Sequence record: PP129558 | Source: Escherichia phage vB_EcoM_01 | Length of the DNA stretch: 64,000 nucleotides | Strand: one strand, 5' to 3' | In this document: piece by piece, positions 3,922 through 63,811 of the stretch | Position numbering within the stretch: the stretch's first letter is position 1 | Layout of the letters: every line of letters begins with the position of its first letter | Position numbers and translations under genes: made by a program | The notes under the pieces: model-generated | The model's input: the letters and a program-made list of their open reading frames with translations, nothing else | What the model was told of the DNA's origin: nothing | Database searches by the model: none

Positions 3922-4019
3922 AAGGAGGAAGATTATGGCTACTTTTCAACAACTGAAAGATGTTTCACGTTTAGTAAGAAAAATCCGAGAAGCAGACGCT
4001 GCTGCTGTCTCTTATACAN

Positions 4020-4609
4020 NNNNNNNNNNNNNNNNNNNNNNNNNNNNNNNNNNNNNNNNNNNNNNNNNNNNNNNNNNNNNNNNNNNNNNNNNNNNNNNNN
4101 NNNNNNNNNNNNNNNNNNNNNNNNNNNNNNNNNNNNNNNNNNNNNNNNNNNNNNNNNNNNNNNNNNNNNNNNNNNNNNNNNNNNNNNNNNNNNNNNNNNN
4201 NNNNNNNNNNNNNNNNNNNNNNNNNNNNNNNNNNNNNNNNNNNNNNNNNNNNNNNNNNNNNNNNNNNNNNNNNNNNNNNNNNNNNNNNNNNNNNNNNNNN
4301 NNNNNNNNNNNNNNNNNNNNNNNNNNNNNNNNNNNNNNNNNNNNNNNNNNNNNNNNNNNNNNNNNNNNNNNNNNNNNNNNNNNNNNNNNNNNNNNNNNNN
4401 NNNNNNNNNNNNNNNNNNNNNNNNNNNNNNNNNNNNNNNNNNNNNNNNNNNNNNNNNNNNNNNNNNNNNNNNNNNNNNNNNNNNNNNNNNNNNNNNNNNN
4501 NNNNNNNNNNNNNNNNNNNNNNNNNNNNNNNNNNNNNNNNNNNNNNNNNNNNNNNNNNNNNNNNNNNNNNNNNNNNNNNNNNNNNNNNNNNNNNNNNNNN
4601 NNNNNNNNN
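4020..4609. other. Assembly gap (N run) with duplicated flanks and adapter remnants
   Basis: 3856-4006 repeats at 4630-4780; CTGTCTCTTATACA at 4007-4018 and ACACCACGTCTG at 4610-4621. Confidence 0.8.
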
Positions 4610-13380: not shown

Positions 13381-13800
13381 ATGTTAGGTAAGATCAAAGC
13401 TTTTTTCAAACGTATTGTTGAAGGAAGTCCAACAGAAGGTGCATTAGGAAGATCTCTAACAGGAGAACCACTTGCCATAATTTCTATCAGTCGGCATGGT
13501 GGATATTCCATTCGACAAACACCTTTAGGTATAGAAGGTAGTATGCTTTCTTGGACAATATCTCAAGTTGGTGATAACAGACTTGCAGCTATAGCGTTAC
13601 TTCGTGGGGAGTATGACCACTGTTTATCAGCATCTTGTAAGAAGCACCTCATAGAGCACATTAGAGACAGAGTAGAAAGAGAAGGCGGATACTTCTTCGA
13701 AACTAAGAGAAACGAACAAGGAACTCTTGACTTCACTAAGGTTTACTGGGACAATCATACTCGTCAAACTGTTGAACAACTTCTGGAGGAAAGATGTTAA
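13381..13800 (+). CDS. Hypothetical protein
   Basis: ORF with AGGGGGA RBS. Confidence 0.45.
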   Translation: MLGKIKAFFKRIVEGSPTEGALGRSLTGEPLAIISISRHGGYSIRQTPLGIEGSMLSWTISQVGDNRLAAIALLRGEYDHCLSASCKKHLIEHIRDRVEREGGYFFETKRNEQGTLDFTKVYWDNHTRQTVEQLLEERC

Positions 13801-14003
13801 AAGCTTTTGCTGTATACTCTACTGTAGGATTCTTTTATTGGATTATAGTTGTTGTTGGATGTTGGTTGGGTTCTTCTGTTGTGATGGGAGAATGGTTAAC
13901 ATACAATGTATTTGAATGGGATGTAGTTTGTAGATCATTGCTTGTTATATGGACTGCTATTGTTTGTTGGATAACTGTTAGTCTAACATTAGATCTATAT
14001 TGA
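13794..14003 (+). CDS. Hypothetical small membrane protein
   Basis: Two hydrophobic segments. Confidence 0.35.
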   Translation: MLKAFAVYSTVGFFYWIIVVVGCWLGSSVVMGEWLTYNVFEWDVVCRSLLVIWTAIVCWITVSLTLDLY

Positions 14004-14363
14004 TTAATAGATGGTAGATAGATGATCATAGTTTATCTACCTTCACTTACGTTTCATACCTCACTATCGTGAGTAACATGAAACATTATTATATAGAAAT
14101 CTACTACTCGCTATCGCTCGTAAACATATGTTTAGGGTACCATATTTTTTTGAAAAAGTCAATGCTGACTCACCTATCAATTATCTGTTTAAGATAAGTC
14201 TTACCTATCAATCTAACTCTTAACTAGTATTGCACCTATAGTAAGACTATTCCTATAGTTATTAACCATCTTCTTCTGTAGAATGTAATTAGATCCTTGA
14301 CAAACTCACAAAGCTTGTGTTACATTGTGTCTCACAGGTGAATAATACCGAACAGGAGGAAGA
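14004..14363 (+). promoter_or_regulatory. 360-bp non-coding region with repeated CCTATCAAT / CCTATAGT motifs and a TTGACA-N17-TTACAT promoter (14297-14325)
   Basis: No ORF with RBS; direct repeats; promoter-like motif before gene 14364. Confidence 0.4.
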
Positions 14364-14579
14364 ATGAGTTCCAATTTTCTATACAAAGCAAAAGATTCAC
14401 GAGATGGAGAGAACCATTGGTGGTTGATCACAGTAGATGGTGTTATCATCCTACCGTGGGACGGAGAGACGAAAGTTCAAATACTAGAGAAAGTAAAAGG
14501 TGTTAGTTTTAATGTTAGTCATGACATAACAACTTTCAAAGCTTTTGCTATGAATCCTAGTCTTGTTGCTGAATGGTAA
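14364..14579 (+). CDS. Hypothetical protein
   Basis: ORF with AGGAGG RBS. Confidence 0.45.
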   Translation: MSSNFLYKAKDSRDGENHWWLITVDGVIILPWDGETKVQILEKVKGVSFNVSHDITTFKAFAMNPSLVAEW

Positions 14580-36123: not shown

Positions 36124-36975
36124 NNNNNNNNNNNNNNNNNNNNNNNNNNNNNNNNNNNNNNNNNNNNNNNNNNNNNNNNNNNNNNNNNNNNNNNNNNNNN
36201 NNNNNNNNNNNNNNNNNNNNNNNNNNNNNNNNNNNNNNNNNNNNNNNNNNNNNNNNNNNNNNNNNNNNNNNNNNNNNNNNNNNNNNNNNNNNNNNNNNNN
36301 NNNNNNNNNNNNNNNNNNNNNNNNNNNNNNNNNNNNNNNNNNNNNNNNNNNNNNNNNNNNNNNNNNNNNNNNNNNNNNNNNNNNNNNNNNNNNNNNNNNN
36401 NNNNNNNNNNNNNNNNNNNNNNNNNNNNNNNNNNNNNNNNNNNNNNNNNNNNNNNNNNNNNNNNNNNNNNNNNNNNNNNNNNNNNNNNNNNNNNNNNNNN
36501 NNNNNNNNNNNNNNNNNNNNNNNNNNNNNNNNNNNNNNNNNNNNNNNNNNNNNNNNNNNNNNNNNNNNNNNNNNNNNNNNNNNNNNNNNNNNNNNNNNNN
36601 NNNNNNNNNNNNNNNNNNNNNNNNNNNNNNNNNNNNNNNNNNNNNNNNNNNNNNNNNNNNNNNNNNNNNNNNNNNNNNNNNNNNNNNNNNNNNNNNNNNN
36701 NNNNNNNNNNNNNNNNNNNNNNNNNNNNNNNNNNNNNNNNNNNNNNNNNNNNNNNNNNNNNNNNNNNNNNNNNNNNNNNNNNNNNNNNNNNNNNNNNNNN
36801 NNNNNNNNNNNNNNNNNNNNNNNNNNNNNNNNNNNNNNNNNNNNNNNNNNNNNNNNNNNNNNNNNNNNNNNNNNNNNNNNNNNNNNNNNNNNNNNNNNNN
36901 NNNNNNNNNNNNNNNNNNNNNNNNNNNNNNNNNNNNNNNNNNNNNNNNNNNNNNNNNNNNNNNNNNNNNNNNNNN
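36124..36975. other. Assembly gap (N run) flanked by 148-bp exact duplication
   Basis: 35976-36123 equals 36976-37123. Confidence 0.8.
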
Positions 36976-53463: not shown

Positions 53464-53844
53464 TCCATATTCNGTCTCTTATNNNNNNNNNNNNNNNNNN
53501 NNNNNNNNNNNNNNNNNNNNNNNNNNNNNNNNNNNNNNNNNNNNNNNNNNNNNNNNNNNNNNNNNNNNNNNNNNNNNNNNNNNNNNNNNNNNNNNNNNNN
53601 NNNNNNNNNNNNNNNNNNNNNNNNNNNNNNNNNNNNNNNNNNNNNNNNNNNNNNNNNNNNNNNNNNNNNNNNNNNNNNNNNNNNNNNNNNNNNNNNNNNN
53701 NNNNNNNNNNNNNNNNNNNNNNNNNNNNNNNNNNNNNNNNNNNNNNNNNNNNNNNNNNNNNNNNNNNNNNNNNNNNNNNNNNNNNNNNNNNNNNNNNNNN
53801 NNNNNNNNNNNNNNNNNNNNNNNNNNNNNNNNNNNNNNNNNNNN
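53464..53844. other. Assembly gap (N run) with duplicated flanks
   Basis: 53322-53463 repeats at 53860-54002; AGAGACAG adapter remnant at 53845-53852. Confidence 0.8.
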
Positions 53845-54426: not shown

Positions 54427-54617
54427 TTCTTTACGTACTCCATGATTGGGGTATGGTCGCCAGTAAGCGTAACACGGCTGTAGGACACATCTTGTGTCTT
54501 CAATGTATCAATCCACTCTAAGAAGTGTTCTTTAGCTTCTGTGTAGTTCTGTGTGCCTTTAACAACGTGTATACCATCTAGCGTTACACGGAATACCATT
54601 TGAATAACGTCTTTCAT
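54423..54617 (-). CDS. Hypothetical protein
   Basis: ORF. Confidence 0.35.
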   Translation of the reverse strand: MKDVIQMVFRVTLDGIHVVKGTQNYTEAKEHFLEWIDTLKTQDVSYSRVTLTGDHTPIMEYVKK

Positions 54618-54730
54618 TTCTTACCTCCTTTGTTGTCAAAGTAGCTTACCAGAACATCGTGAACCACACACATGGCAAAAATCAGAACAATTGTTGCCAG
54701 GATTGGGTTCTCACTAATTAGTGCTATCAT
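54614..54730 (-). CDS. Tiny membrane peptide (38 aa)
   Basis: ATG after GGAGGTGG; hydrophobic. Confidence 0.3.
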   Translation of the reverse strand: MIALISENPILATIVLIFAMCVVHDVLVSYFDNKGGKK

Positions 54731-55037
54731 CTTTAACCACCTCCAATTGCCTTTCGAGTTTGACTCTGTTTGAGAACTGATAATGACACAACTTACATTG
54801 CATGTCAACAATCTGATCGTGATTTAACCCTACAATTTTAACTTCCTTTGCACCATCCCACTCCAAATACTCAAAGCCATCTAAATGATTACTCTTGTCC
54901 AACAGGAATGCTATCTGCTGCCATTCAATCTGAATATCATTTAAATGATATGCTGCACAGAAGATATCCTCATAGTAAAAGACGATCATTGTCATTGCTT
55001 CGTCTAGTACAACTACCTCTTGTCTTGTAAATCTCAT
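54714..55037 (-). CDS. Hypothetical protein (first gene of minus-strand block)
   Basis: ORF with GGAGG RBS. Confidence 0.4.
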   Translation of the reverse strand: MRFTRQEVVVLDEAMTMIVFYYEDIFCAAYHLNDIQIEWQQIAFLLDKSNHLDGFEYLEWDGAKEVKIVGLNHDQIVDMQCKLCHYQFSNRVKLERQLEVVKDDSTN

Positions 55038-55049
55038 TCTAGCCTCCTA

Positions 55050-55517
55050 AACGCGTCTCTGACACACTTTTTATATATAAGATGATAAATCACCTTACCT
55101 AGTAAGTAAACTTGCTCTACGAGCCTCTTATGAAGCTTATGTTATAGGCTATACTATTACTACCTGTTTAAGCAAGGTTTTGCACACAGAAATAATTTTT
55201 TAATAAAACTCTTGACTTTTGTGTTCGAAGTATGCTACCCTAGAAATCTATTAACGAGCGCAGCGAGTTAAGGTTTTAGGTTGTTGATGTAGTACTCTGT
55301 ACTCAAGTACTGTACTCCGTACTAGATTAATAATTATTAAATATTAATAATAAATAATTATTAGATCTAACAAACAGGTACAGTGTATCAGAACTGGTAC
55401 GTACAGATCAACTTCTATCAATTAAAAATAAAATAATAAATTATTATAAATAATACTTGATCTATAGATCAGTATGAAGTACAGTACGTAACATCTTAAC
55501 AAGAATGGAGGTGTGCA
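55050..55517. promoter_or_regulatory. AT-rich divergent intergenic control region with GTACT(C) iterons and a perfect palindrome
   Basis: Five GTACT repeats 55292-55324; palindrome TGATCTATAGATCA ~55458-55471; no ORF. Confidence 0.5.
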
Positions 55518-55703
55518 ATGATTAGTGAGAATCCGTGCAAATGGCATCATGTGCCTATTAAAGATTGTATGTCTTGTAATCCACGTTCTATTTATAACAT
55601 TGCATCTTATGATGATGACAATGTGTTAGACGATGATGAAGGCTGGGAGGATTTAGATTGGACTGGTTATGAAACCAAAAGGGATAAAATTATTCCTAGT
55701 TGA
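55518..55703 (+). CDS. Hypothetical small Cys-containing protein
   Basis: ORF with GGAGG RBS. Confidence 0.4.
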   Translation: MISENPCKWHHVPIKDCMSCNPRSIYNIASYDDDNVLDDDEGWEDLDWTGYETKRDKIIPS

Positions 55704-55740
55704 CTTAAGATATCCTTCGTGCTAAACTAGAAGTGAGGAG

Positions 55741-55992
55741 ATGCCGATCACTCCCCATTTGGGGTTCGAAGGATATATGCAAAATAGCTTTTATTTTAGG
55801 TGCCGTGCTTGTAATAGGCATTTGACAAACCACTCCAGACGTGATAAAAATGGAGTCATCAAGGAATCAGACCTCTGTTCTATTTGCACAGGTTTGGCTT
55901 TTGATGATAGTCCCGAAAGGGTTTATCAGCATCAATATATAACAGACGTTCTCGTGTCAAACTTGGTAGAGGACGAACAACTAACAGATTAG
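55741..55992 (+). CDS. Hypothetical zinc-ribbon-like protein
   Basis: CRACNRH ... CSICTG. Confidence 0.4.
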   Translation: MPITPHLGFEGYMQNSFYFRCRACNRHLTNHSRRDKNGVIKESDLCSICTGLAFDDSPERVYQHQYITDVLVSNLVEDEQLTD

Positions 55993-56000
55993 GAGGAACA

Positions 56001-56249
56001 ATGTCTCTATTAGAAAAACACGTGTTTGAAGATGGTAACGGCAATGCAGTTTTTCTTTTCCATCCAGAAAAATACACATCTGAAAATAATGGTACAACTT
56101 CTATTGTAATCACTAAAGATGTTAAAGTTATTGATTTCTTGGCTCTGATGCGAGAGATGGATCTTGAAATTAATACTTTTAACGCAGAAGCTTTGGTTGT
56201 TGCTCTTCTGGAAAAGAAAGATAGTGAAGAAGTAGCAGAATATGCTTAA
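56001..56249 (+). CDS. Hypothetical protein
   Basis: ORF with AGGAGG RBS. Confidence 0.4.
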   Translation: MSLLEKHVFEDGNGNAVFLFHPEKYTSENNGTTSIVITKDVKVIDFLALMREMDLEINTFNAEALVVALLEKKDSEEVAEYA

Positions 56250-56256
56250 ATAACTA

Positions 56257-56286
56257 TTGACAAACGTATCCTTCATATGTTAGGAT
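56257..56286 (+). promoter_or_regulatory. Candidate sigma70-like promoter ahead of ncRNA/tRNA region
   Basis: TTGACA at 56257, TAGGAT 18 nt downstream. Confidence 0.35.
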
Positions 56287-56299
56287 ACGTTCATCAAGT

Positions 56300-56490
56300 G
56301 TGGTAACAGGGTCGTTGATTTTTGTTAAGAGGGGCTTGCACTGCGGTAGTGTTAGAGACTACTTCTTCAGAGGTTAGCTACCAAAGAGGAAAAGGAATAG
56401 TCTCGGCTCAAGAACTTTTACGCTGAAAGTTGGGCTTGGTCTTAGAGAATGTAGCGATTCTCTACAATCGTCAGCGTCTCTGTTACCACA
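56300..56490 (+). ncRNA. Candidate structured small RNA closed by a long-range helix
   Basis: GTGGTAACAG (56302-) pairs with CTGTTACCAC (56480-); internal hairpins GAGACTA/TAGTCTC and AGAGAAT/ATTCTCT; no ORF. Confidence 0.35.
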
Positions 56491-56495
56491 TTTAT

Positions 56496-56570
56496 GGCCC
56501 TGTAGCTCAATGGGAGAGCTGTCGGCTCATAACCGATAGGTAGCTGGATCGAAACCAGCCAGGGCCACCA
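56496..56570 (+). tRNA. tRNA with CAT anticodon (Met, or Ile via lysidine)
   Basis: Hand-folded cloverleaf: acceptor GGCCCTG/CAGGGCC, anticodon loop CTCATAA, CCA encoded. Confidence 0.65.
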
Positions 56571-56572
56571 AC

Positions 56573-56647
56573 GTCTTTATGGTGTAATGGATAGCACAGG
56601 AGTCTTCTAAACTCTTAGTCAAGGTTCGATTCCTTGTAAAGACACCA
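56573..56647 (+). tRNA. tRNA-Arg (anticodon TCT)
   Basis: Acceptor GTCTTTA/TAAAGAC, T-arm CAAGG-TTCGATT-CCTTG, loop CTTCTAA. Confidence 0.6.
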
Positions 56648-56844
56648 GAACATTTTAACATGAATTAGCTCAAGTGATTTGAACCCACTACTGATCATGG
56701 TGGCAGAGAATGAGGCAAGTATGTCAGACATTATAAACAAAGGCCACGGTTATATTAGAAGACATAAATGCTCGAAGAGCACCGTTCGTGGAGAGCGGGG
56801 GTTGGTGGAGTCACCATTCATGGTAAAATGTTTTAAAAAACTAT

Positions 56845-56879
56845 TGACAACTAACATTATTTTATGTTAGATTATAAGT
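56845..56879 (+). promoter_or_regulatory. Sigma70-like promoter upstream of tRNA-Ser genes
   Basis: TTGACA at 56845; TTAGAT/TATAAG -10 candidates; upstream A tract. Confidence 0.4.
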
Positions 56880-56881
56880 AT

Positions 56882-56972
56882 GGAAGGGCAAATCGACGTG
56901 GCGACGAAAACGGTCTTGAAAACCGCCGAGCTTGAAAGAGCCTTGGGAGTTCGACTCTCCCTCCTTCCGCCA
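56882..56972 (+). tRNA. tRNA-Ser (anticodon TGA), long variable arm
   Basis: Acceptor GGAAGGG/TCCTTCC, loop CTTGAAA, T-arm GGGAG-TTCGACT-CTCCC; D-arm irregular. Confidence 0.55.
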
Positions 56973-56977
56973 GATTA

Positions 56978-57063
56978 GGTAGATTGGTGAAATGGTAGCC
57001 ACGACAGTTTGCTAAACTGTAGTCGGAAACGGCGTGTAGGTTCGAGTCCTACATCTACCGCCA
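56978..57063 (+). tRNA. tRNA-Ser (anticodon GCT), long variable arm
   Basis: Acceptor GGTAGAT/ATCTACC, anticodon arm ACAGT-TTGCTAA-ACTGT. Confidence 0.7.
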
Positions 57064-57193
57064 AGTTCTTTTTAATGTAGCTTACTTTAGCAGAGTAAAT
57101 CTTCGGCAAGTGGCGGTAACCACTTTACCGATACCTCATAGTTAGTGGTGAGAACACTGGCTATTTTAAAAAGAATTTAAATATTAGTATTTA

Positions 57194-57281
57194 GGTGAGT
57201 TAATTCCGTAGGGGTAGCGGGGCAGACTGTAAATCTGTTATCATTGCGATTCGGGTGGTTCGACTCCATCACTCACCACCA
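57194..57281 (+). tRNA. tRNA-Tyr (anticodon GTA), long variable arm
   Basis: Acceptor GGTGAGT/ACTCACC, loop CTGTAAA. Confidence 0.6.
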
Positions 57282-57287
57282 AATTAA

Positions 57288-57373
57288 GATGAGTTGGCTG
57301 AATGGTTTAAGCGGCGGACTGTTAATCCGTGTTCGAAAGAACAATATAGGTTCGAATCCTATACTCATCGCCA
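57288..57373 (+). tRNA. tRNA with long variable arm, anticodon uncertain (best fold reads GTT)
   Basis: Acceptor GATGAGT/ACTCATC, T-arm ATAGG-TTCGAAT-CCTAT; D-arm poorly formed. Confidence 0.45.
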
Positions 57374-57463
57374 GAATTATGGACTTGTAGAGTTAAGGTA
57401 AACCCCCAGTCGCCAATAGGCTTCTGGAATTGCAGGTATCGAATCCTGCCGAGTCCCAGCATT

Positions 57464-57538
57464 GCTCCTATAGTATAATGGCTATTACAACGGTTTTGTA
57501 ATCCGTGGATCTCTGTTCGATTCAGTGTGGGAGCACCA
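57464..57538 (+). tRNA. tRNA-Thr (anticodon TGT)
   Basis: Acceptor GCTCCTA/TGGGAGC, loop TTTGTAA, T-loop TTCGATT. Confidence 0.55.
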
Positions 57539-57811
57539 ACACAACATTAAGAGCACTGTGATTGATCGTCGTATCCTGTGCACAAGGTCTGCTCGAAAGA
57601 CAGTGTTCTTAGTATTGTGTTGATCACAAAAAGAGTCACCCGAAACTTGACCGGAGTAGGGTTGGATGGGGCAAAATGAGAAGCGGCTCTCCCATCGACA
57701 GCAACGAAGAATAATATTTGACTTTGGTTTTGTATTATTTTAAGTTAGCTTACCGAACGTAGGGCTAGTCACCCAACGGGATACTCGTCACTGTCCCAAT
57801 CAATAAAAGTC

Positions 57812-57840
57812 TTGACAACAAATAGTAAAATGTAGTATAG
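57812..57840 (+). promoter_or_regulatory. Sigma70-like promoter (TTGACA-N16-TAGTAT) inside tRNA region
   Basis: Motif upstream of tRNA-Gly. Confidence 0.45.
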
Positions 57841-57852
57841 TAAATATATAGG

Positions 57853-57926
57853 GCGTTCTTGGTGTAGCGGTAGCATTCCGTCCTTCCAAGTCGGCGGCAC
57901 GAGTTCGATCCTCGTAGAACGCTCCA
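57853..57926 (+). tRNA. tRNA-Gly (anticodon TCC)
   Basis: Acceptor GCGTTCT/AGAACGC, T-arm ACGAG-TTCGATC-CTCGT, loop CTTCCAA. Confidence 0.6.
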
Positions 57927-58024
57927 AATTATTTAATAAAGGGTTGCCAGAAAACTTTCTCTTTTACTCATGGTTTTCTCCTTCTCTCACACTTCTTCTG
58001 GTTGCCCTTCATTAAATGATTTAT

Positions 58025-58100
58025 TGGTTTGTAGTGTAGTCCGGTAGCACACGACACTTTGACTGTCGTAGGTTTGGTTCAAATCCAGACAGACCAGCCA
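58025..58100 (+). tRNA. tRNA-Gln (anticodon TTG)
   Basis: Acceptor TGGTTTG/CAGACCA, anticodon arm CGACA-CTTTGAC-TGTCG. Confidence 0.65.
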
Positions 58101-58267
58101 TATAACGGAATTTAGCTCAGTTTGGTAGAGCGTACGCTTTGGGAGCGTAGGGTCGCAGGTTCGAATCCTGCAATNCNGACAGACCAGCCATATAACGGAA
58201 TTTAGCTCAGTTTGGTAGAGCGTACGCTTTGGGAGCGTAGGGTCGCAGGTTCGAATCCTGCAATTCC
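58088..58267. repeat. Exact ~90-bp tandem duplication spanning tRNA-Gln 3' end and tRNA-Pro, N bases at junction (probable assembly artifact)
   Basis: 58088-58177 equals 58178-58267; Ns at 58175 and 58177. Confidence 0.7.
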
Positions 58268-58272
58268 GACCA
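58196..58272 (+). tRNA. tRNA-Pro (anticodon TGG); a redundant copy at 58106-58182 lacks a proper 3' end
   Basis: Acceptor CGGAATT/AATTCCG, anticodon arm TACGC-TTTGGGA-GCGTA, T-loop TTCGAAT. Confidence 0.65.
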
Positions 58273-58278
58273 ATTAAA

Positions 58279-58352
58279 TGTTTCGTAGTTCAATGGTAGA
58301 ACCCACGACTGATAATCGTGAGACACAAGTTCGATTCTTGTCGAAACAACCA
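58279..58352 (+). tRNA. tRNA-Ile (anticodon GAT)
   Basis: Acceptor TGTTTCG/CGAAACA, anticodon arm CACGA-CTGATAA-TCGTG. Confidence 0.7.
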
Positions 58353-58430
58353 GTTTCCCGTTAGACTTACAGGATAAGAGATCCACAATTTATTGTGACG
58401 CTGGTTCGAATCCAGCACGGGATACCTAAT

Positions 58431-58509
58431 AGCGGGATAGAGGAGTCTGGTCGTCCTCGCCAGTTTCATATGCTGGAGATCATTGGTTCAAATCCAATTC
58501 CCGCCTCCA
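58431..58509 (+). tRNA. Second tRNA with CAT anticodon (Met/fMet or Ile2), A1-C72 mismatch
   Basis: T-arm ATTGG-TTCAAAT-CCAAT, anticodon arm CCAGT-TTCATAT-GCTGG. Confidence 0.5.
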
Positions 58510-62188: not shown

Positions 62189-63754
62189 GTGTCAACAGGA
62201 AAAAGAACGTACACTAAAAAGTCAGAATACTGGGACAAAGGTGCTGCAAATAAAGCTGCTCTCTCTCCAACAAAAGAGGCAGAGAAAGAGAAAACGTTAC
62301 TCCTGTCACCTGAAATAGGAACGATCGGATTAAACTCAATCAAAGCATTTACGAATTTCATGCAACCTTATGAGACTCGTTTCCCAGAATGTATTCGCAC
62401 TTTTAAAGAGATGGGTGAAGACCCTGATGTAGCTACTGCTCTTGATGCTACATATATCTTTGTAGATAGAGCATTCTTTGATTTCAAGATAAAATACAAT
62501 GTAAACTCGGCAAAGTCAAGAAAAGCTGCTAAGTTTATTGATTACATGTTACGCAATATGCAAGCCCCTCTACGTCAATATGTTAGATCACTTTTGACAT
62601 ATAAGCAATATGGTTTTGCATTTGCAGAGAAAGTTTATGAGTTGGATGAAGATCCTAAAAGTCCTTACTTTGGGTATTGGCGATTAACCAAACTGGCTTT
62701 TAGACCACAAGACACTCTTCACATGGCTCAACCTTTTACATATTCGGCAGACGGACGTTCTATTCTATCTGTTAACCAGAATATCACCAATACGATGTTA
62801 GCTCCAGGCAATACAACTTTAGAAACTGGTATTAAAGAAATTCCTTTCAGTAAAGTTTTATTTGTTGGTAGCAACATTACAGAGAATAACCCACTAGGAG
62901 TTAGTCCGCTTTTAGCTGTATATCGTAGCTGGCGTGAAAAATCTCTTATTCAGGAATTTGAGGTTATTGGGGTATCTAAAGATTTAGGTGGTATGCCAGT
63001 TCTTAAGGTTCCAAGTGACATTCTAAACAGGGCATCTTTAGATCCTGCTGGGGATGAAGCACAATCTCTTCGAGTTCTCCAAGCCAACATCGCTAACCTG
63101 CACTCTGGTGAGCAAGCCTACATGGTATTGCCTTCAGACGTTTATGAAGGCACAGTGATGCGTCAATACGATCTTGTATTCCAAGGTGTTGATGGCACAG
63201 GTAAACAGTTTGACACTCAAGCACTAATCAAACAACGCAAGCTAGATATTTATAACCGCTTTGGTGCGGGTGTGTTGATTATGGGTGATGGTGATGCAGG
63301 AAGTTTTGCGCTTTCTGACAACAAACAAACACTATTGTCTCATTTTATTGAGCGAGATGTAGATATTGTTGTAGAAGCTATAAACTCTCAACTGATCCCT
63401 CAAACACTACGACTAAACAATATCTTCCTTTCTGATGAAGATATGCCTAAGTTTGTCAGTGGTGAAATGGGTGATCCTGATATTGAAGTAAATGCTAAAG
63501 CTATTCAGCAGTTGGTAGCCTCTGGTGCAATACCTTTAACCCCAGAAGTTATTAACGAGTTCCTTGAAAAAATTGGTTTTGAATATCGCATCCCTGACGA
63601 TATTGTTGCCAATAAAGAGAAATTCTTTGAATTCATGGATAACTATATGCCTGACAAAACTTCACGATCAGGAGATGGTTTAGCTACAGCGGGAACTGGA
63701 ACATCTGATACTGTTTCTGCTTTAGATCCTTCAGCACAAAACCTGTCGAATTAA
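62189..63754 (+). CDS. Probable portal protein
   Basis: 521-aa ORF directly after terL; assigned by position and size only. Confidence 0.5.
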   Translation: MSTGKRTYTKKSEYWDKGAANKAALSPTKEAEKEKTLLLSPEIGTIGLNSIKAFTNFMQPYETRFPECIRTFKEMGEDPDVATALDATYIFVDRAFFDFKIKYNVNSAKSRKAAKFIDYMLRNMQAPLRQYVRSLLTYKQYGFAFAEKVYELDEDPKSPYFGYWRLTKLAFRPQDTLHMAQPFTYSADGRSILSVNQNITNTMLAPGNTTLETGIKEIPFSKVLFVGSNITENNPLGVSPLLAVYRSWREKSLIQEFEVIGVSKDLGGMPVLKVPSDILNRASLDPAGDEAQSLRVLQANIANLHSGEQAYMVLPSDVYEGTVMRQYDLVFQGVDGTGKQFDTQALIKQRKLDIYNRFGAGVLIMGDGDAGSFALSDNKQTLLSHFIERDVDIVVEAINSQLIPQTLRLNNIFLSDEDMPKFVSGEMGDPDIEVNAKAIQQLVASGAIPLTPEVINEFLEKIGFEYRIPDDIVANKEKFFEFMDNYMPDKTSRSGDGLATAGTGTSDTVSALDPSAQNLSN

Positions 63755-63782
63755 AAATATTTAATATTTTTTAATTTTTCTA

Positions 63783-63811
63783 TTGACAAAACAACAAATA
63801 TCCTGTAGACT
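63783..63811 (+). promoter_or_regulatory. Sigma70-like promoter (TTGACA-N17-TAGACT)
   Basis: Motif upstream of partial gene. Confidence 0.4.

Follow-up and report, generated by a model that had tools for sequence, protein, structure and literature searches.

The AT-rich gap of 468 bp (positions 55050-55517) in this phAPEC8-like coliphage is probably a conserved divergent early-promoter hub of the Stephanstirmvirinae genome, a reading to which we assign a probability of about 0.7. A divergent control region had been proposed here in an initial annotation, and this proposal was supported, as three sigma70-type promoters were footprinted across three genus-level lineages. The finding is real but fairly ordinary. 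The GTACT repeats in the gap, which had suggested an iteron-type replication origin, are most likely no conserved origin iterons but the product of a local duplication, in which one promoter module was recently copied in a single sub-lineage.

The window, i.e. the whole stretch of 64,000 nucleotides analysed, belongs to Phapecoctavirus (matches to 67 records, 62 of which cover at least 80% of the query). As annotated, the gap lies between a minus-strand block, which begins with a gene starting at 55037, and a plus-strand side with ORFs, the first of them with its ATG at 55518, and 11 tRNA genes (56496-58509); all strings quoted in the annotation were found at their positions. The gap is free of ORFs as far as real genes are concerned; a trivial 42-aa ORF on the minus strand overlaps its right edge. 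According to the ORF list, the leftward transcription unit starts with a gene for a protein of 107 aa (54714-55037, minus strand), which is preceded by the ribosome binding site TAGGAGGCT (55049-55041, minus strand; coordinates checked). No Pfam family was found for this protein, and its homologs occupy the same divergent junction in phi92, FKP3, Tr1 and KKP_3264. On the right side, the ribosome binding site GGAGG (55507-11) precedes the first rightward ORF of 61 aa (55518-55703, plus strand), which is followed by small ORFs and then by the tRNA cluster. The 61-aa ORF is restricted to Phapecoctavirus and has no Pfam match. Due to its confinement to the genus it was discarded as a marker for distant relatives, and the 107-aa leftward ORF served instead. 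A Pfam search of ten flanking ORFs yielded no families and therefore no clue to a cognate DNA-binding protein. The covariance models of Rfam 15 gave only tRNA hits in 54500-56600 and nothing credible in 13500-14500. An origin of the region from the host or from a prophage copy was rejected, since the region is unmatched in 5,426 E. coli genomes.

The candidate leftward promoter P_L (55082-55110, minus strand) was obtained by a consensus scan and consists of the -35 hexamer TTTACT (55110-55105), a 17-nt spacer and the -10 hexamer TATCAT (55087-55082). In the junction sequences of Tr1 and FKP3 this site reads TTGACT-N17-TACCAT and TTGACA-N17-TATCAT, respectively, and 7% of the P_L columns are variable among close relatives. 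The putative first rightward promoter P_R1 (55212-55241, plus strand) is composed of the -35 hexamer TTGACT, an 18-nt spacer, the TG of an extended -10 region (55233-34) and the -10 hexamer TACCCT (55236-41), with a predicted start near 55248. An A/T tract of 19 nt, resembling an UP element, was detected by an A/T-run scan directly upstream of P_R1 (55190-55208, plus strand), and an A/T-rich tract likewise precedes further members of its promoter family in the window. This family is defined by the A/T-rich upstream tract, AAAACTnTTGAC(A/T), N17-18 and TGnTAnnnT, and its members are located at 55212, 55700, 56257, 56844, 57812, 58667, 62091 and 63783; a 31-nt A/T run at 63749 adjoins the strong promoter at 63783.

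The second rightward promoter, P_R2 (55457-55485, plus strand; coordinates checked), is predicted from the -35 hexamer TTGATC, a 17-nt spacer and the -10 hexamer TACAGT. Its -35 hexamer abuts AT run 2, 36 nt of pure A/T (55420-55455, plus strand; A/T-run scan), which we infer to be an UP element; at this position, an A/T run of 16-50 nt occurs in every lineage. The hexamers and spacings of P_L, P_R1 and P_R2 conform to the sigma70 type (TTG...; TA...T; 16-18 (19) nt), and the A/T tracts of 19 nt before P_R1 and 36 nt before P_R2 lie where an UP element is expected (about -40 to -60). The homologs of P_R2 read TTGACT-N18-TGtTAGAGT, a canonical form, in phiWec188 and TTGACT-N17 (ending with TG)-TAGAGT in phi92, both with AGATCT in the spacer. 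In the phAPEC8-type lineage the consensus is weaker than in these relatives (4/6 and 4/6, without extended TG). The perfect 14-bp palindrome to which the initial annotation had drawn attention, TGATCTATAGATCA at 55458-55471, overlaps the -35 hexamer and the spacer of P_R2 and is unique in the window. It is indeed present, but among 11 aligned relatives only 5 have it intact; TTGATC is invariant in the relatives, and the right arm of the palindrome varies. The palindrome is probably a by-product, formed when the -35 hexamer drifted from TTGACT to TTGATC beside a conserved AGATC. The idea that AGATCT serves early promoters generally as an operator was also rejected, as it occurs 30 times genome-wide (27 expected) and, among the early promoters, only in the spacer of P_R2.

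These promoter assignments are based on consensus and conservation, and promoter activity and its early timing are probable. The comparison comprised phiWec-type Phapecoctavirus, phi92-like Justusliebigvirus and the Citrobacter phage Tr1, and additionally KKP_3264 and FKP3. The order P_L, P_R1, leader box, GATCTAACA box, A/T run and P_R2 is kept in phiWec188/179, phi92, KKP_3264, FKP3 and Tr1, although the flanking proteins share only 33-57% identity and different genes lie downstream; NAD-salvage genes, instead of tRNAs, would be driven by this hub in phi92-like phages. The motif TTGACw-N17/18-TGnTACCCT of P_R1 is invariant in these phages and in seven IMG/VR modules. The conservation of the skeleton independently of the downstream genes also fits an extra role in cis, for example as an origin. 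Mapping of transcription starts or transcriptomes for phages of the subfamily was not found in the literature, nor was any mapping of transcripts, origin or terminus for the gap.

Between P_R1 and P_R2, several boxes are conserved in the putative leader. The box GAGCGCAGCGAG (55256-55267, plus strand), recognized by its conservation across the lineages, would occupy about +8 to +20 of the predicted P_R1 transcript, and its form GAGCG(C/A)AGCGAG is invariant in all lineages compared. A paralogous promoter-plus-box, TTGACT-N17-TGgTACCCT followed by CGAGCGATAGCGAG, was found in a scan of the window at 14168-14105 (minus strand). This copy shows that P_R1 and its box belong to a repeated promoter class with about two copies per genome, and the IMG/VR genomes carry two copies too. 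A search of IMG/VR with an exact 25-mer hit only one contig; the gapped promoter-plus-box pattern hit 114 loci, of which seven were genuine further modules, in genomes of 147-150 kb. The box is followed by a short tandem repeat of the TAAGGTTT type (55268-55285, plus strand; alignment of relatives) with variable copy number (three copies in anhysbys, two in UP17 and Ro121lw) and 38% variable columns. More conserved are the GATCTAACA(A/G)AC box (55364-55376, plus strand; 7% variable columns), which is present as GATCTAACAGAC in phi92, KKP_3264 and Tr1, and GTAC cluster 2, GGTACAGTGTATCAGAACTGGTACGTACA (55377-55405, plus strand), the least variable element among close relatives (3%) and the positional homolog of a TGCTCTATACT-type sequence in other lineages.

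Taken as a promoter hub, the gap would be read by the host sigma70 RNA polymerase in both directions. Leftward transcription would start at P_L (55110-55082) and enter the minus-strand block of about 37 kb, and rightward transcription would start at the tandem promoters P_R1 (extended -10 TGcTACCCT) and P_R2 (TTGATC-N17-TACAGT) and serve the small ORFs and the tRNA cluster. The pure A/T runs probably act as UP elements contacted by the C-terminal domain of the alpha subunit; AT run 2 adjoins the -35 hexamer of P_R2 in the same way as the run in front of the promoter at 63783. The box GAGCG(C/A)AGCGAG at the 5' end of the P_R1 transcripts presumably marks a small class of co-regulated promoters, of which the second copy lies at 14168-14105.

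Comparable arrangements are known. The rrn operons of E. coli, stable-RNA operons, are transcribed from the tandem strong sigma70 promoters P1 and P2 with an A/T-rich UP element. The hub shares with them tandem sigma70 promoters not more than a few hundred bp apart, an A/T tract upstream of the -35 hexamer and a tRNA operon that would be driven through a conserved leader; it differs in the distance of the promoters (about 245 bp in the phAPEC8-type lineage), and for Fis sites or a boxA antitermination element the hub offers at most a lead, in the form of TGCTCTATA-like strings in relatives. The rV5-like phages resemble the present phage in that two large transcription units diverge from an intergenic gap with host-type promoters, of which several have an extended -10, and in that the GC skew turns at the same place (PMC3606486). 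In rV5, bidirectional promoters were predicted between genes 10 and 11, but at the second place where they were expected, between genes 81 and 82, none could be located (PMC3606486). In contrast to rV5, the promoters of the hub are supported by footprinting across genera in addition to a consensus search, and its rightward side comprises two tandem promoters with a conserved leader between them.

The most conspicuous part of the gap does not belong to this conserved design. The five GTACT units of AGTACTCTGTACTCAAGTACTGTACTCCGTACTAG (55291-55325, plus strand) start at 55292, 55299, 55307, 55312 and 55319, i.e. at distances of 7, 8, 5 and 7 bp, so that the regular phasing of 7-8 bp initially ascribed to them does not exist. 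Directly 3' of the array lies AT run 1 (55326-55363, plus strand), 38 nt of pure A/T, which is internally palindromic (DNA hairpin z = -3.5) and the longest A/T run of the window. Both elements are specific to the lineage. The array is missing in phiWec-type and phi92-type phages, FKP3, Tr1 and the IMG/VR relatives, and array plus AT run 1 are not found at this position in Tr1, phi92 and phiWec188. Downstream of P_R1, five GTACT occur in the window versus 0-1 in the sister lineages and IMG/VR relatives, and the junction contains ten GTAC versus 1-3 in other lineages. The expectation that the region be conserved in close relatives was thus borne out for the promoter skeleton and disappointed for the supposed iterons. 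Even within the phAPEC8-type lineage the number of GTACT varies from 3 to 5; the array of dw-ec is shorter by 13 nt, which corresponds to two units, and that of phAPEC8 lacks one unit. The array has 35% variable columns, in comparison to 3-7% for promoters and boxes, and is the most indel-prone part of the gap.

An alignment revealed where this sequence most likely comes from. The segment 55286-55366, which holds the array and AT run 1, is colinear with the reverse complement of 55416-55495, which comprises AT run 2, P_R2 and GTAC cluster 3 (score 25 versus 11.5 ± 2.1 and a maximum of 21 in 500 shuffles); the two segments form the left and the right arm of an imperfect inverted duplication. 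Between GTACT units 3-5 and the -10/spacer region of P_R2, read as its reverse complement, 15 of 17 positions agree. It is therefore likely that an insertion of about 75-80 bp, specific to the phAPEC8-type lineage, arose by inverted duplication of the P_R2 module (GTACTGTACTCCGTACT corresponding to the reverse complement of AGTATGAAGTACAGTAC), and that a later tandem duplication of 13 nt added two more GTACT units. The outcome would be an imperfect palindrome of about 210 bp within the P_R1 leader, by which the P_R1 transcripts would acquire an extra A/T tract and, between 55307-16 and 55478-87, a long-range RNA helix. The effect of the duplication may be close to neutral. As the phAPEC8-type lineage is young (93-99% identity), the fact that about 60 genomes keep the array is of little use for judging selection, be it for or against.

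The accumulation of GTAC in the gap is non-random. In the 64 kb, GTAC occurs 67 times in comparison to about 200 expected from base composition (about threefold depletion), and its observed/expected ratio of 0.39 in a maximal-order Markov model is the third lowest among 256 tetramers. Nevertheless, 10 of the 67 sites fall in 55292-55487, i.e. within 200 bp (Poisson P about 5e-14). The two longest A/T-only runs of the window (38 nt at 55326 and 36 nt at 55420) are located in the gap as well. The ratio for GTAC is lowest in the phAPEC8-type lineage (0.39 versus 0.54-0.79 in relatives, small samples), so that it is something of a paradox that a lineage depleted of GTAC tolerates ten sites, and this may point to a function that the present analysis has missed. 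The GTAC-free array of BI-EHEC was rejected as a natural variant: this genome is based on Nanopore reads only, and GTAC-to-ATAC changes occur in it genome-wide, always on the top strand of the record and about half of them non-synonymous.

Direct repeats beside an A/T-rich tract are also typical of iteron origins such as lambda ori and those of plasmids. Classical iterons have a length of about 17-22 bp, are helically phased and are conserved together with their initiator. Instead of at least three such repeats, the array offers cores of 5 nt (up to 7-8 nt) at irregular spacings of 5-8 bp, which are specific to one lineage, vary in copy number, derive from a promoter duplication and are absent in relatives sharing the replication machinery. 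The 38-nt run directly 3' of the array has the composition of an unwinding element, but is explained, judging from the alignment, as part of the duplicated UP element. DnaA boxes (TTWTNCACA) are at chance level (13 in the window versus 10.3 ± 3.4 expected), and the one in the gap is, by eye, not kept in phi92. The iteron origin initially considered was thus not supported. A transcription-activated origin, in contrast, does not depend on the array. The primary origin of T7 consists of the promoters phi1.1A/1.1B and a downstream AT-rich region, and oriF and oriG of T4 combine a middle promoter with a DNA-unwinding element. It is conceivable, though unlikely, that RNA made from P_R1 (and P_R2) runs into the A/T run(s) and gives rise to an R-loop or primer, that the helicase-primase of the phage loads there, and that replication then proceeds bidirectionally and co-oriented with the two divergent gene blocks. 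The tracts richest in A/T of the whole 64 kb, two in number, begin 85 and 180 nt downstream of P_R1, the arrangement of promoter and downstream A/T is conserved in all lineages whatever is encoded downstream, and the cumulative GC skew has its minimum at about 55-56 kb. As in T7 and T4, promoters and an easily melted A/T tract would meet in a virulent phage that has a helicase-primase of its own; relatives are described as possessing helicase/primase (PMC12210895), and no origin has been mapped in this phage group (PMC3606486). The skew minimum, however, coincides exactly with the switch of the gene strand, just as in rV5 every turn of the skew coincides with a change of transcription direction (PMC3606486), and the skew can therefore not discriminate an origin. 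Furthermore, the A/T run abuts the -35 hexamer in every lineage, as at 63749-63783, which is a sufficient explanation for its presence; it lies exactly at the UP-element place of the next promoter, which distinguishes the hub from the T7 and T4 origins, as do its predicted host-type promoters and the GTACT units, which have no counterpart there. The DnaA boxes at chance level lend no support either. The sister lineages have neither the GTACT units nor AT run 1, and these can therefore not be essential parts of an origin. With the same low probability, the skeleton of P_R1 (TGnTACCCT), GAGCGnAGCGAG box, GATC-containing boxes, A/T run and P_R2 could be a transcription-primed origin of Stephanstirmvirinae and perhaps also of rV5-like phages, and the promoter-plus-box class may mark a regulatory circuit of its own, which would target either the first 20 nt of the transcript or the corresponding DNA. 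If there is such an origin, the inverted duplication of the phAPEC8-type lineage adds a second unwinding element to it.

The GTACT array had also been interpreted as a regulator-binding array. Operators for a phage or host DNA-binding protein, for example a Trp-repressor-like reader of GNACT that modulates read-through from P_R1 or the firing of nearby promoters in the phAPEC8-type lineage, would account for ten clustered GTAC sites in a genome avoiding this tetramer about threefold and for five GTACT cores on the same strand, two of them AGTACT palindromes. The trp operator GAACTAGTTAACTAGTAC, verified in 5,422 E. coli genomes, was scored against the gap and matched best at 55319-55336 (13/18, top 1% of background windows); the GTACT cores resemble its GNACT cores with their spacing of about 8 bp, and one GTACTAG half-site lies at 55319-55325. 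However, the Trp-repressor operator has inverted GNACT half-sites placed around CTAG cores 8 bp apart, whereas only one CTAG occurs in the array, whose five units are all direct and form no inverted pairs, and this candidate was rejected. Irregular spacing of the units (7, 8, 5, 7 bp), their absence from sister lineages with the same promoters, their proneness to indels, the lack of a second GTACT cluster in the window that would suggest a regulon and of a related sequence in the 5,426 E. coli genomes, and the duplicated -10/spacer of P_R2, which explains the array sequence, make an operator array still less likely than a transcription-activated origin, and the regulator-binding interpretation was not upheld. 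Slightly less probable again is a function at the RNA level, in which the inverted duplication forms a long imperfect hairpin in the P_R1 transcripts and serves as a processing site (e.g. for RNase III), stabiliser or insulator upstream of the tRNA operon. The leader has a minimum free energy of -60.4 kcal/mol (z = -3.1; 1 of 200 shuffles as good), and its predicted fold contains a perfect 10-bp helix (55307-16 : 55478-87) with about five more pairs, whose arms are those of the inverted duplication. But an inverted duplication of DNA yields such a fold automatically, and no significant structure is predicted for the leader in the phiWec188 lineage, where the duplication is missing (z = -1.5). 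The helix is also short for RNase III, no Rfam family matched, and the carriers are too similar for covariation, the sole substitution in the helix (phAPEC8) being uncompensated. A packaging function, i.e. a pac site like that of P1 with its clustered Dam-site hexamers or a physical terminus, is very improbable. It was suggested by four GATC, including TGATCT/AGATCA, in 110 bp and by the GenBank record of nieznany, which breaks inside the gap and has part of it at both ends. The density of GATC is at chance, since about 0.76 such windows are expected, and the four sites are not significant on their own. The two ends of nieznany differ by a 66-bp deletion and look like an assembly break in a repeat-rich patch of low complexity, so that this break was taken as an assembly artefact or heterogeneity and not as a terminus. 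The direct terminal repeat of the relative BME3 (342 bp, defined by PhageTerm; PMC12210895) is homologous to positions around 300-600 and 1000-1550 of the window, about 55 kb away from the gap, which contradicts the packaging site proposed initially.

Few coliphages are isolated as frequently as Phapecoctavirus and its relatives, which are candidates for therapy and whose early transcription, replication origin and regulation are unmapped. Interpreted as a divergent promoter hub, the gap yields a map of the main divergent early promoters that can be tested and that contains three promoters with predicted starts, a promoter-plus-box class found across genera and conserved leader boxes. If the promoters and A/T runs prime replication after all, the same map would locate the replication origin for the whole subfamily. 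At the same time, a tempting false lead is removed, as the supposed iterons are most likely a young duplication of a promoter module. The gap thereby illustrates how promoter modules can duplicate and invert and so give rise to repeat arrays and palindromes that resemble origins.

The 1.2 kb around the gap at 55050-55517 matched 67 phage records; in 62, the match covered 80% or more of the query, and the identities were mostly 95-99%. These records represent phAPEC8-like myoviruses with genomes of ~150 kb, which belong to the genus Phapecoctavirus in the subfamily Stephanstirmvirinae. The gap is bordered by a minus-strand gene starting at 55037 and a plus-strand ORF starting at 55518, downstream of which 11 tRNA genes are located (56496-58509). 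It carries no annotation in the annotated records, save that tuntematon, nepoznato and anhysbys have an automatic 'repeat_region' over part of the A/T-rich repeats, which in tuntematon corresponds to the second A/T run plus the palindrome. Of the tRNA genes, two adjacent ones for tRNA-Pro(TGG) (58106-58180 and 58196-58272) are tandem duplicates; positions 58175 and 58177 are N. Altogether, 1,837 positions of the window are N, in masked blocks (4019-4609, 36124-36975 and 53483-53844) and scattered singles; one masked block sits 1.2 kb upstream of the gap.

Junction homologs were gathered from ever more distant relatives, with the leftward 107-aa ORF (33-57% amino acid identity) as anchor; the rightward 61-aa ORF occurs within the genus only. 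Compared were phiWec188, phiWec179 and PsgM04F (a divergent Phapecoctavirus sub-lineage), phi92, KKP_3264 and FKP3 (Justusliebigvirus) and Citrobacter phage Tr1, and one ordered skeleton was common to all junctions. It comprises a predicted leftward promoter, P_L (minus strand, 55110-55082; TTTACT-N17-TATCAT in the window, TTGACT-N17-TACCAT in Tr1, TTGACA-N17-TATCAT in FKP3), and a predicted rightward promoter, P_R1 (plus strand, 55212-55241), of the form TTGACw-N17/18-TGnTACCCT, whose unusual -10 is invariant. The box GAGCG(C/A)AGCGAG (plus strand, 55256-55267) lies 8-20 nt into the predicted P_R1 transcript. It is followed by a GATCTAACA(A/G)AC box (55364-55376), also found in phi92, KKP_3264 and Tr1, and by a pure-A/T run (16-38 nt in the compared junctions, 17-50 nt in IMG/VR junction homologs). 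This run abuts a second predicted rightward promoter, P_R2 (plus strand, 55457-55485), which reads TTGATC-N17-TACAGT in the window and has canonical homologs in phiWec188 (TTGACT-N18-TGtTAGAGT) and phi92 (TTGACT-N17, ending in TG, then TAGAGT), each with AGATCT in the spacer. The genes downstream encode PRPP synthetase and nicotinamide phosphoribosyltransferase in phi92, FKP3 and Tr1, and are small ORFs and tRNAs in Phapecoctavirus; since they differ between genera, the skeleton is conserved in its own right. With three predicted sigma70-type promoters kept in position across the compared lineages, the divergent control region proposed in the initial annotation is supported.

Among nine reliable close relatives, only 3-7% of the columns varied in the promoters and conserved boxes. 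Of non-A/T motifs, only AGATCT/TAGATC was shared by the leaders of every lineage and occurred there more often than expected (AGATC 16 vs 3.2 expected; ATCTA 13 vs 3.1 expected); genome-wide it was not enriched, and its occurrence in spacers was limited to P_R2. It might be a Dam/SeqA-sensitive or a regulator-binding element. A window scan revealed a promoter family consisting of an A/T-rich upstream tract, AAAACTnTTGAC(A/T), a 17-18-nt spacer often ending in TGn, and TAnnnT, with plus-strand members at 55212, 55700, 56257, 56844, 57812, 58667, 62091 and 63783. The two pure-A/T runs of the gap (run 1, 55326-55363, 38 nt; run 2, 55420-55455, 36 nt) are the longest in the window, and the third longest (31 nt at 63749) lies immediately upstream of the predicted strong promoter at 63783, so that long A/T runs would normally accompany the strong promoters of this genome.

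The A/T run ahead of P_R2 also varies among close relatives (35, 47 and 50 nt; phi92, stretch L020, vs the IMG/VR Justusliebigvirus-like stretches L036 and L037). The longer runs hold repeated TTATTAATT-like strings, which suggests tandem addition of such units, and in BI-EHEC run 2 is expanded by 12 nt; the tracts in front of P_R2 are prone to expansion. Leaders of relatives carry TGCTCTATA(CT/GT)...ACAA strings (phiWec188, L003 ~2685-2715; Tr1 and phi92 junctions), which we take to resemble the rrn/lambda boxA antitermination element (TGCTCTTTAACAA) and regard as a candidate lead; the positional homolog in the lineage of the window is CTGGTACGTACAGATCAAC. EP57 (OR544956.1, L010) lacks 20 nt between P_L and P_R1, aligned to ~55102-55121, and ~55472-55506, from the right arm of the palindrome to just before the RBS and including the P_R2 -10. 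As this record has only 130.7 kb, these gaps may stem from faulty assembly instead of a natural deletion in a viable phage.

A second copy of the P_R1-type promoter with its box is present on the minus strand at 14168-14105 (TTGACT-N17-TGgTACCCT ... CGAGCGATAGCGAG), about 45 nt of which are nearly identical to P_R1 and its leader (55228-55270). Surrounded by a block of plus-strand genes, this copy diverges from a plus-strand promoter at 14297 and is followed by a hairpin-rich leader down to ~13880 with a TAGATCTAA box ~140 nt downstream. A gapped-pattern scan of IMG/VR yielded seven more genuine promoter-plus-box modules on contigs of 147-150 kb, typically two per genome, the second of which precedes a small ORF.

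All strings quoted in the initial annotation were found in the region, including the array of five GTACT units, AGTACTCTGTACTCAAGTACTGTACTCCGTACTAG (55291-55325); further GTAC-containing patches occur at 55377-55405 and 55478-55488. The regular 7-8 bp phasing ascribed to the units was not confirmed, as they are spaced by 7, 8, 5 and 7 bp. GTAC occurs 67 times in the window vs ~200 expected from base composition, and its maximal-order Markov observed/expected ratio of 0.39 is the third lowest of 256 tetramers, behind CCGG and GGCC. Ten of the 67 sites are packed into 200 bp of the gap (Poisson P ~5e-14), which is far from random; the four GATC in 110 bp are at chance level. The GTAC patch shows a direct 39-nt repeat (family D1, 72% identity) as well as an inverted 28-nt repeat (pair I1, 75% complementarity), and both relationships appear because GTAC is its own reverse complement.

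The array was absent from every other compared lineage, with ten GTAC per junction in the window vs one to three elsewhere and five GTACT downstream of P_R1 vs none or one. In the multiple alignment, array and A/T run 1 stand out as an insertion of ~75-80 bp that separates the TTAAGG..TAGGT segment from the GATCTAACA box. The inserted 55286-55366 is colinear with the P_R2 module (55416-55495) read in reverse complement: GATG opens both arms, 15 of 17 positions agree between GTACTGTACTCCGTACT and the reverse-complemented AGTATGAAGTACAGTAC, and the A/T runs align after the GTACT part. The local alignment score of the two arms was 25 vs 11.5 +/- 2.1 in 500 shuffles (maximum 21). The other two GTACT units amount to 13 extra nt, the same length that is absent in phage dw-ec, which points to a 13-nt tandem duplication, or its loss by slippage. 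The array (35% of columns) and the neighbouring TAAGGTTT repeat (38%) were the most variable elements among the nine close relatives. From its restriction to one lineage, its alignment to the P_R2 module and its variability, the supposed iterons are most probably a young, lineage-specific by-product of promoter-module duplication and not a conserved repeat family.

The perfect 14-bp palindrome, TGATCTATAGATCA (55458-55471), is present and unique in the window, but it is not conserved, being intact in only 5 of 11 relatives. It overlaps the P_R2 -35 (TTGATC) and spacer. TTGATC is invariant among the relatives, whereas the right arm reads GATTA in four phages and AATCA in phAPEC8 and is truncated in EP57; the site reads TTGACTTTAGATCT in phi92 and TTGACTTTTAGATCT in phiWec188. 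The most plausible reading of the palindrome is a -35 that would have drifted from TTGACT to TTGATC beside a conserved AGATC.

An iteron-type origin is not supported, as the array departs from the classical type in length, phasing and conservation, and DnaA boxes occur in the window at chance level. The cumulative GC-skew minimum at 55-56 kb is also the point where the gene strand switches; in rV5, every skew turn coincides with a change in transcription direction, and an origin could not be defined (PMC3606486). The conserved skeleton might double as a transcription-primed origin of the subfamily, with promoter and unwinding element in the manner of T7 or T4. The skeleton is compatible with this but gives no need for it, as an UP element would be expected at exactly the position of the A/T run, and we regard such an origin as improbable. 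For a packaging site or genome end speaks that the nieznany record (MN850598.1) starts and ends inside the gap, with ~165-235 bp repeated at both ends (L005 1-460, L006 2780-2999). However, a 66-bp deletion distinguishes the two terminal copies, so the record looks to have been broken during assembly within repeat-rich sequence. Moreover, the phi92-like relative BME3 has 342-bp direct terminal repeats according to PhageTerm (PMC12210895), and its annotated repeat with surroundings (PP239276) is homologous not to 55 kb but to window ~300-600 and 1000-1550, which argues against packaging here. These stretches are non-coding, and by this homology the physical ends of vB_EcoM_01 probably lie near the window start. 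In the shorter nieznany copy, GGTACA is joined to AATAATAC; the missing 66 bp (window ~55383-55448) may be dispensable, and the difference reflects either population heterogeneity or an assembly artefact.

The proposed regulator-binding array is not supported either, given its absence from other lineages. The GTACT array is reminiscent of Trp-repressor operators; trpO was confirmed in E. coli genomes and then scored against the region. The best match was 13/18 (1% tail of background), with a single CTAG core and all five units on one strand, unlike the operator architecture, and the 5,426 E. coli genomes searched contained nothing similar to 55270-55500. An RNA-level element, formed by folding of the P_R1 leader between the arms of the inverted duplication, would agree with a fold better than that of shuffles (z = -3.1) and with a perfect 10-bp helix between the arms (55307-16 with 55478-87) in the predicted structure. 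An inverted DNA duplication yields such a fold automatically, though, and the leader of a lineage without it is unremarkable (z = -1.5); Rfam gave no match for the P_R1 leader.

Avoidance of GTAC was strongest in the phAPEC8-type lineage (Markov ratio 0.39), compared to 0.54 in phiWec-type phages, 0.79 in Justusliebigvirus and 0.76 in Tr1, all small samples. CCGG (0.36), GGCC (0.39) and CTAG (0.53) are likewise avoided, GATC (0.92) is not. This pattern is consistent with past restriction pressure on a phage group for which unusual sensitivity to restriction-modification systems has been reported (PMC8594841). In BI-EHEC (OL505078.1), a Nanopore-only genome (Guppy 4/Flye/Medaka; PMC8686590), GTAC was by far the most altered tetramer in comparison to the whole window, e.g. 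at 55292-55487: 21 of 66 sites (32%) were kept, whereas the median for other tetramers was 91%. Some 30 of 45 changes were GTAC to ATAC, always on the top strand of the record and about half of them non-synonymous; sites after G (GGTAC) were mostly spared in a by-eye comparison of site lists. This looks like systematic miscalling at a modified motif and suggests that GTAC is modified in virion DNA grown on the EHEC host of BI-EHEC. In phage dw-ec, which comes from the same laboratory, the GTAC sites of the gap region are retained.

Judged by sequence anatomy, conservation, the duplication relationship and statistics, the gap is probably (about 70%) a divergent predicted early-promoter region in which the array arose by inverted duplication of the P_R2 module. 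Divergent early-promoter regions with tandem promoters and UP-like tracts are well known; a description of this region or of the promoter-plus-box class was not found in the literature searched. The main puzzle is the tolerance of ten GTAC sites by the very lineage in which GTAC avoidance is strongest. Upon infection, the host's sigma70 polymerase would initiate leftward at P_L and rightward at P_R1 and P_R2, with the A/T runs as putative UP elements, and the promoters that share the invariant TGnTACCCT -10 and the 5' box may form a small class under common regulation. The P_R1 leader of phAPEC8-type phages would have received an inverted copy of the P_R2 module, part of which then expanded by slippage. 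This insertion would have created the GTACT array, an additional A/T run (run 1) and an imperfect palindrome of ~210 bp, and its effect may be modulatory at most.
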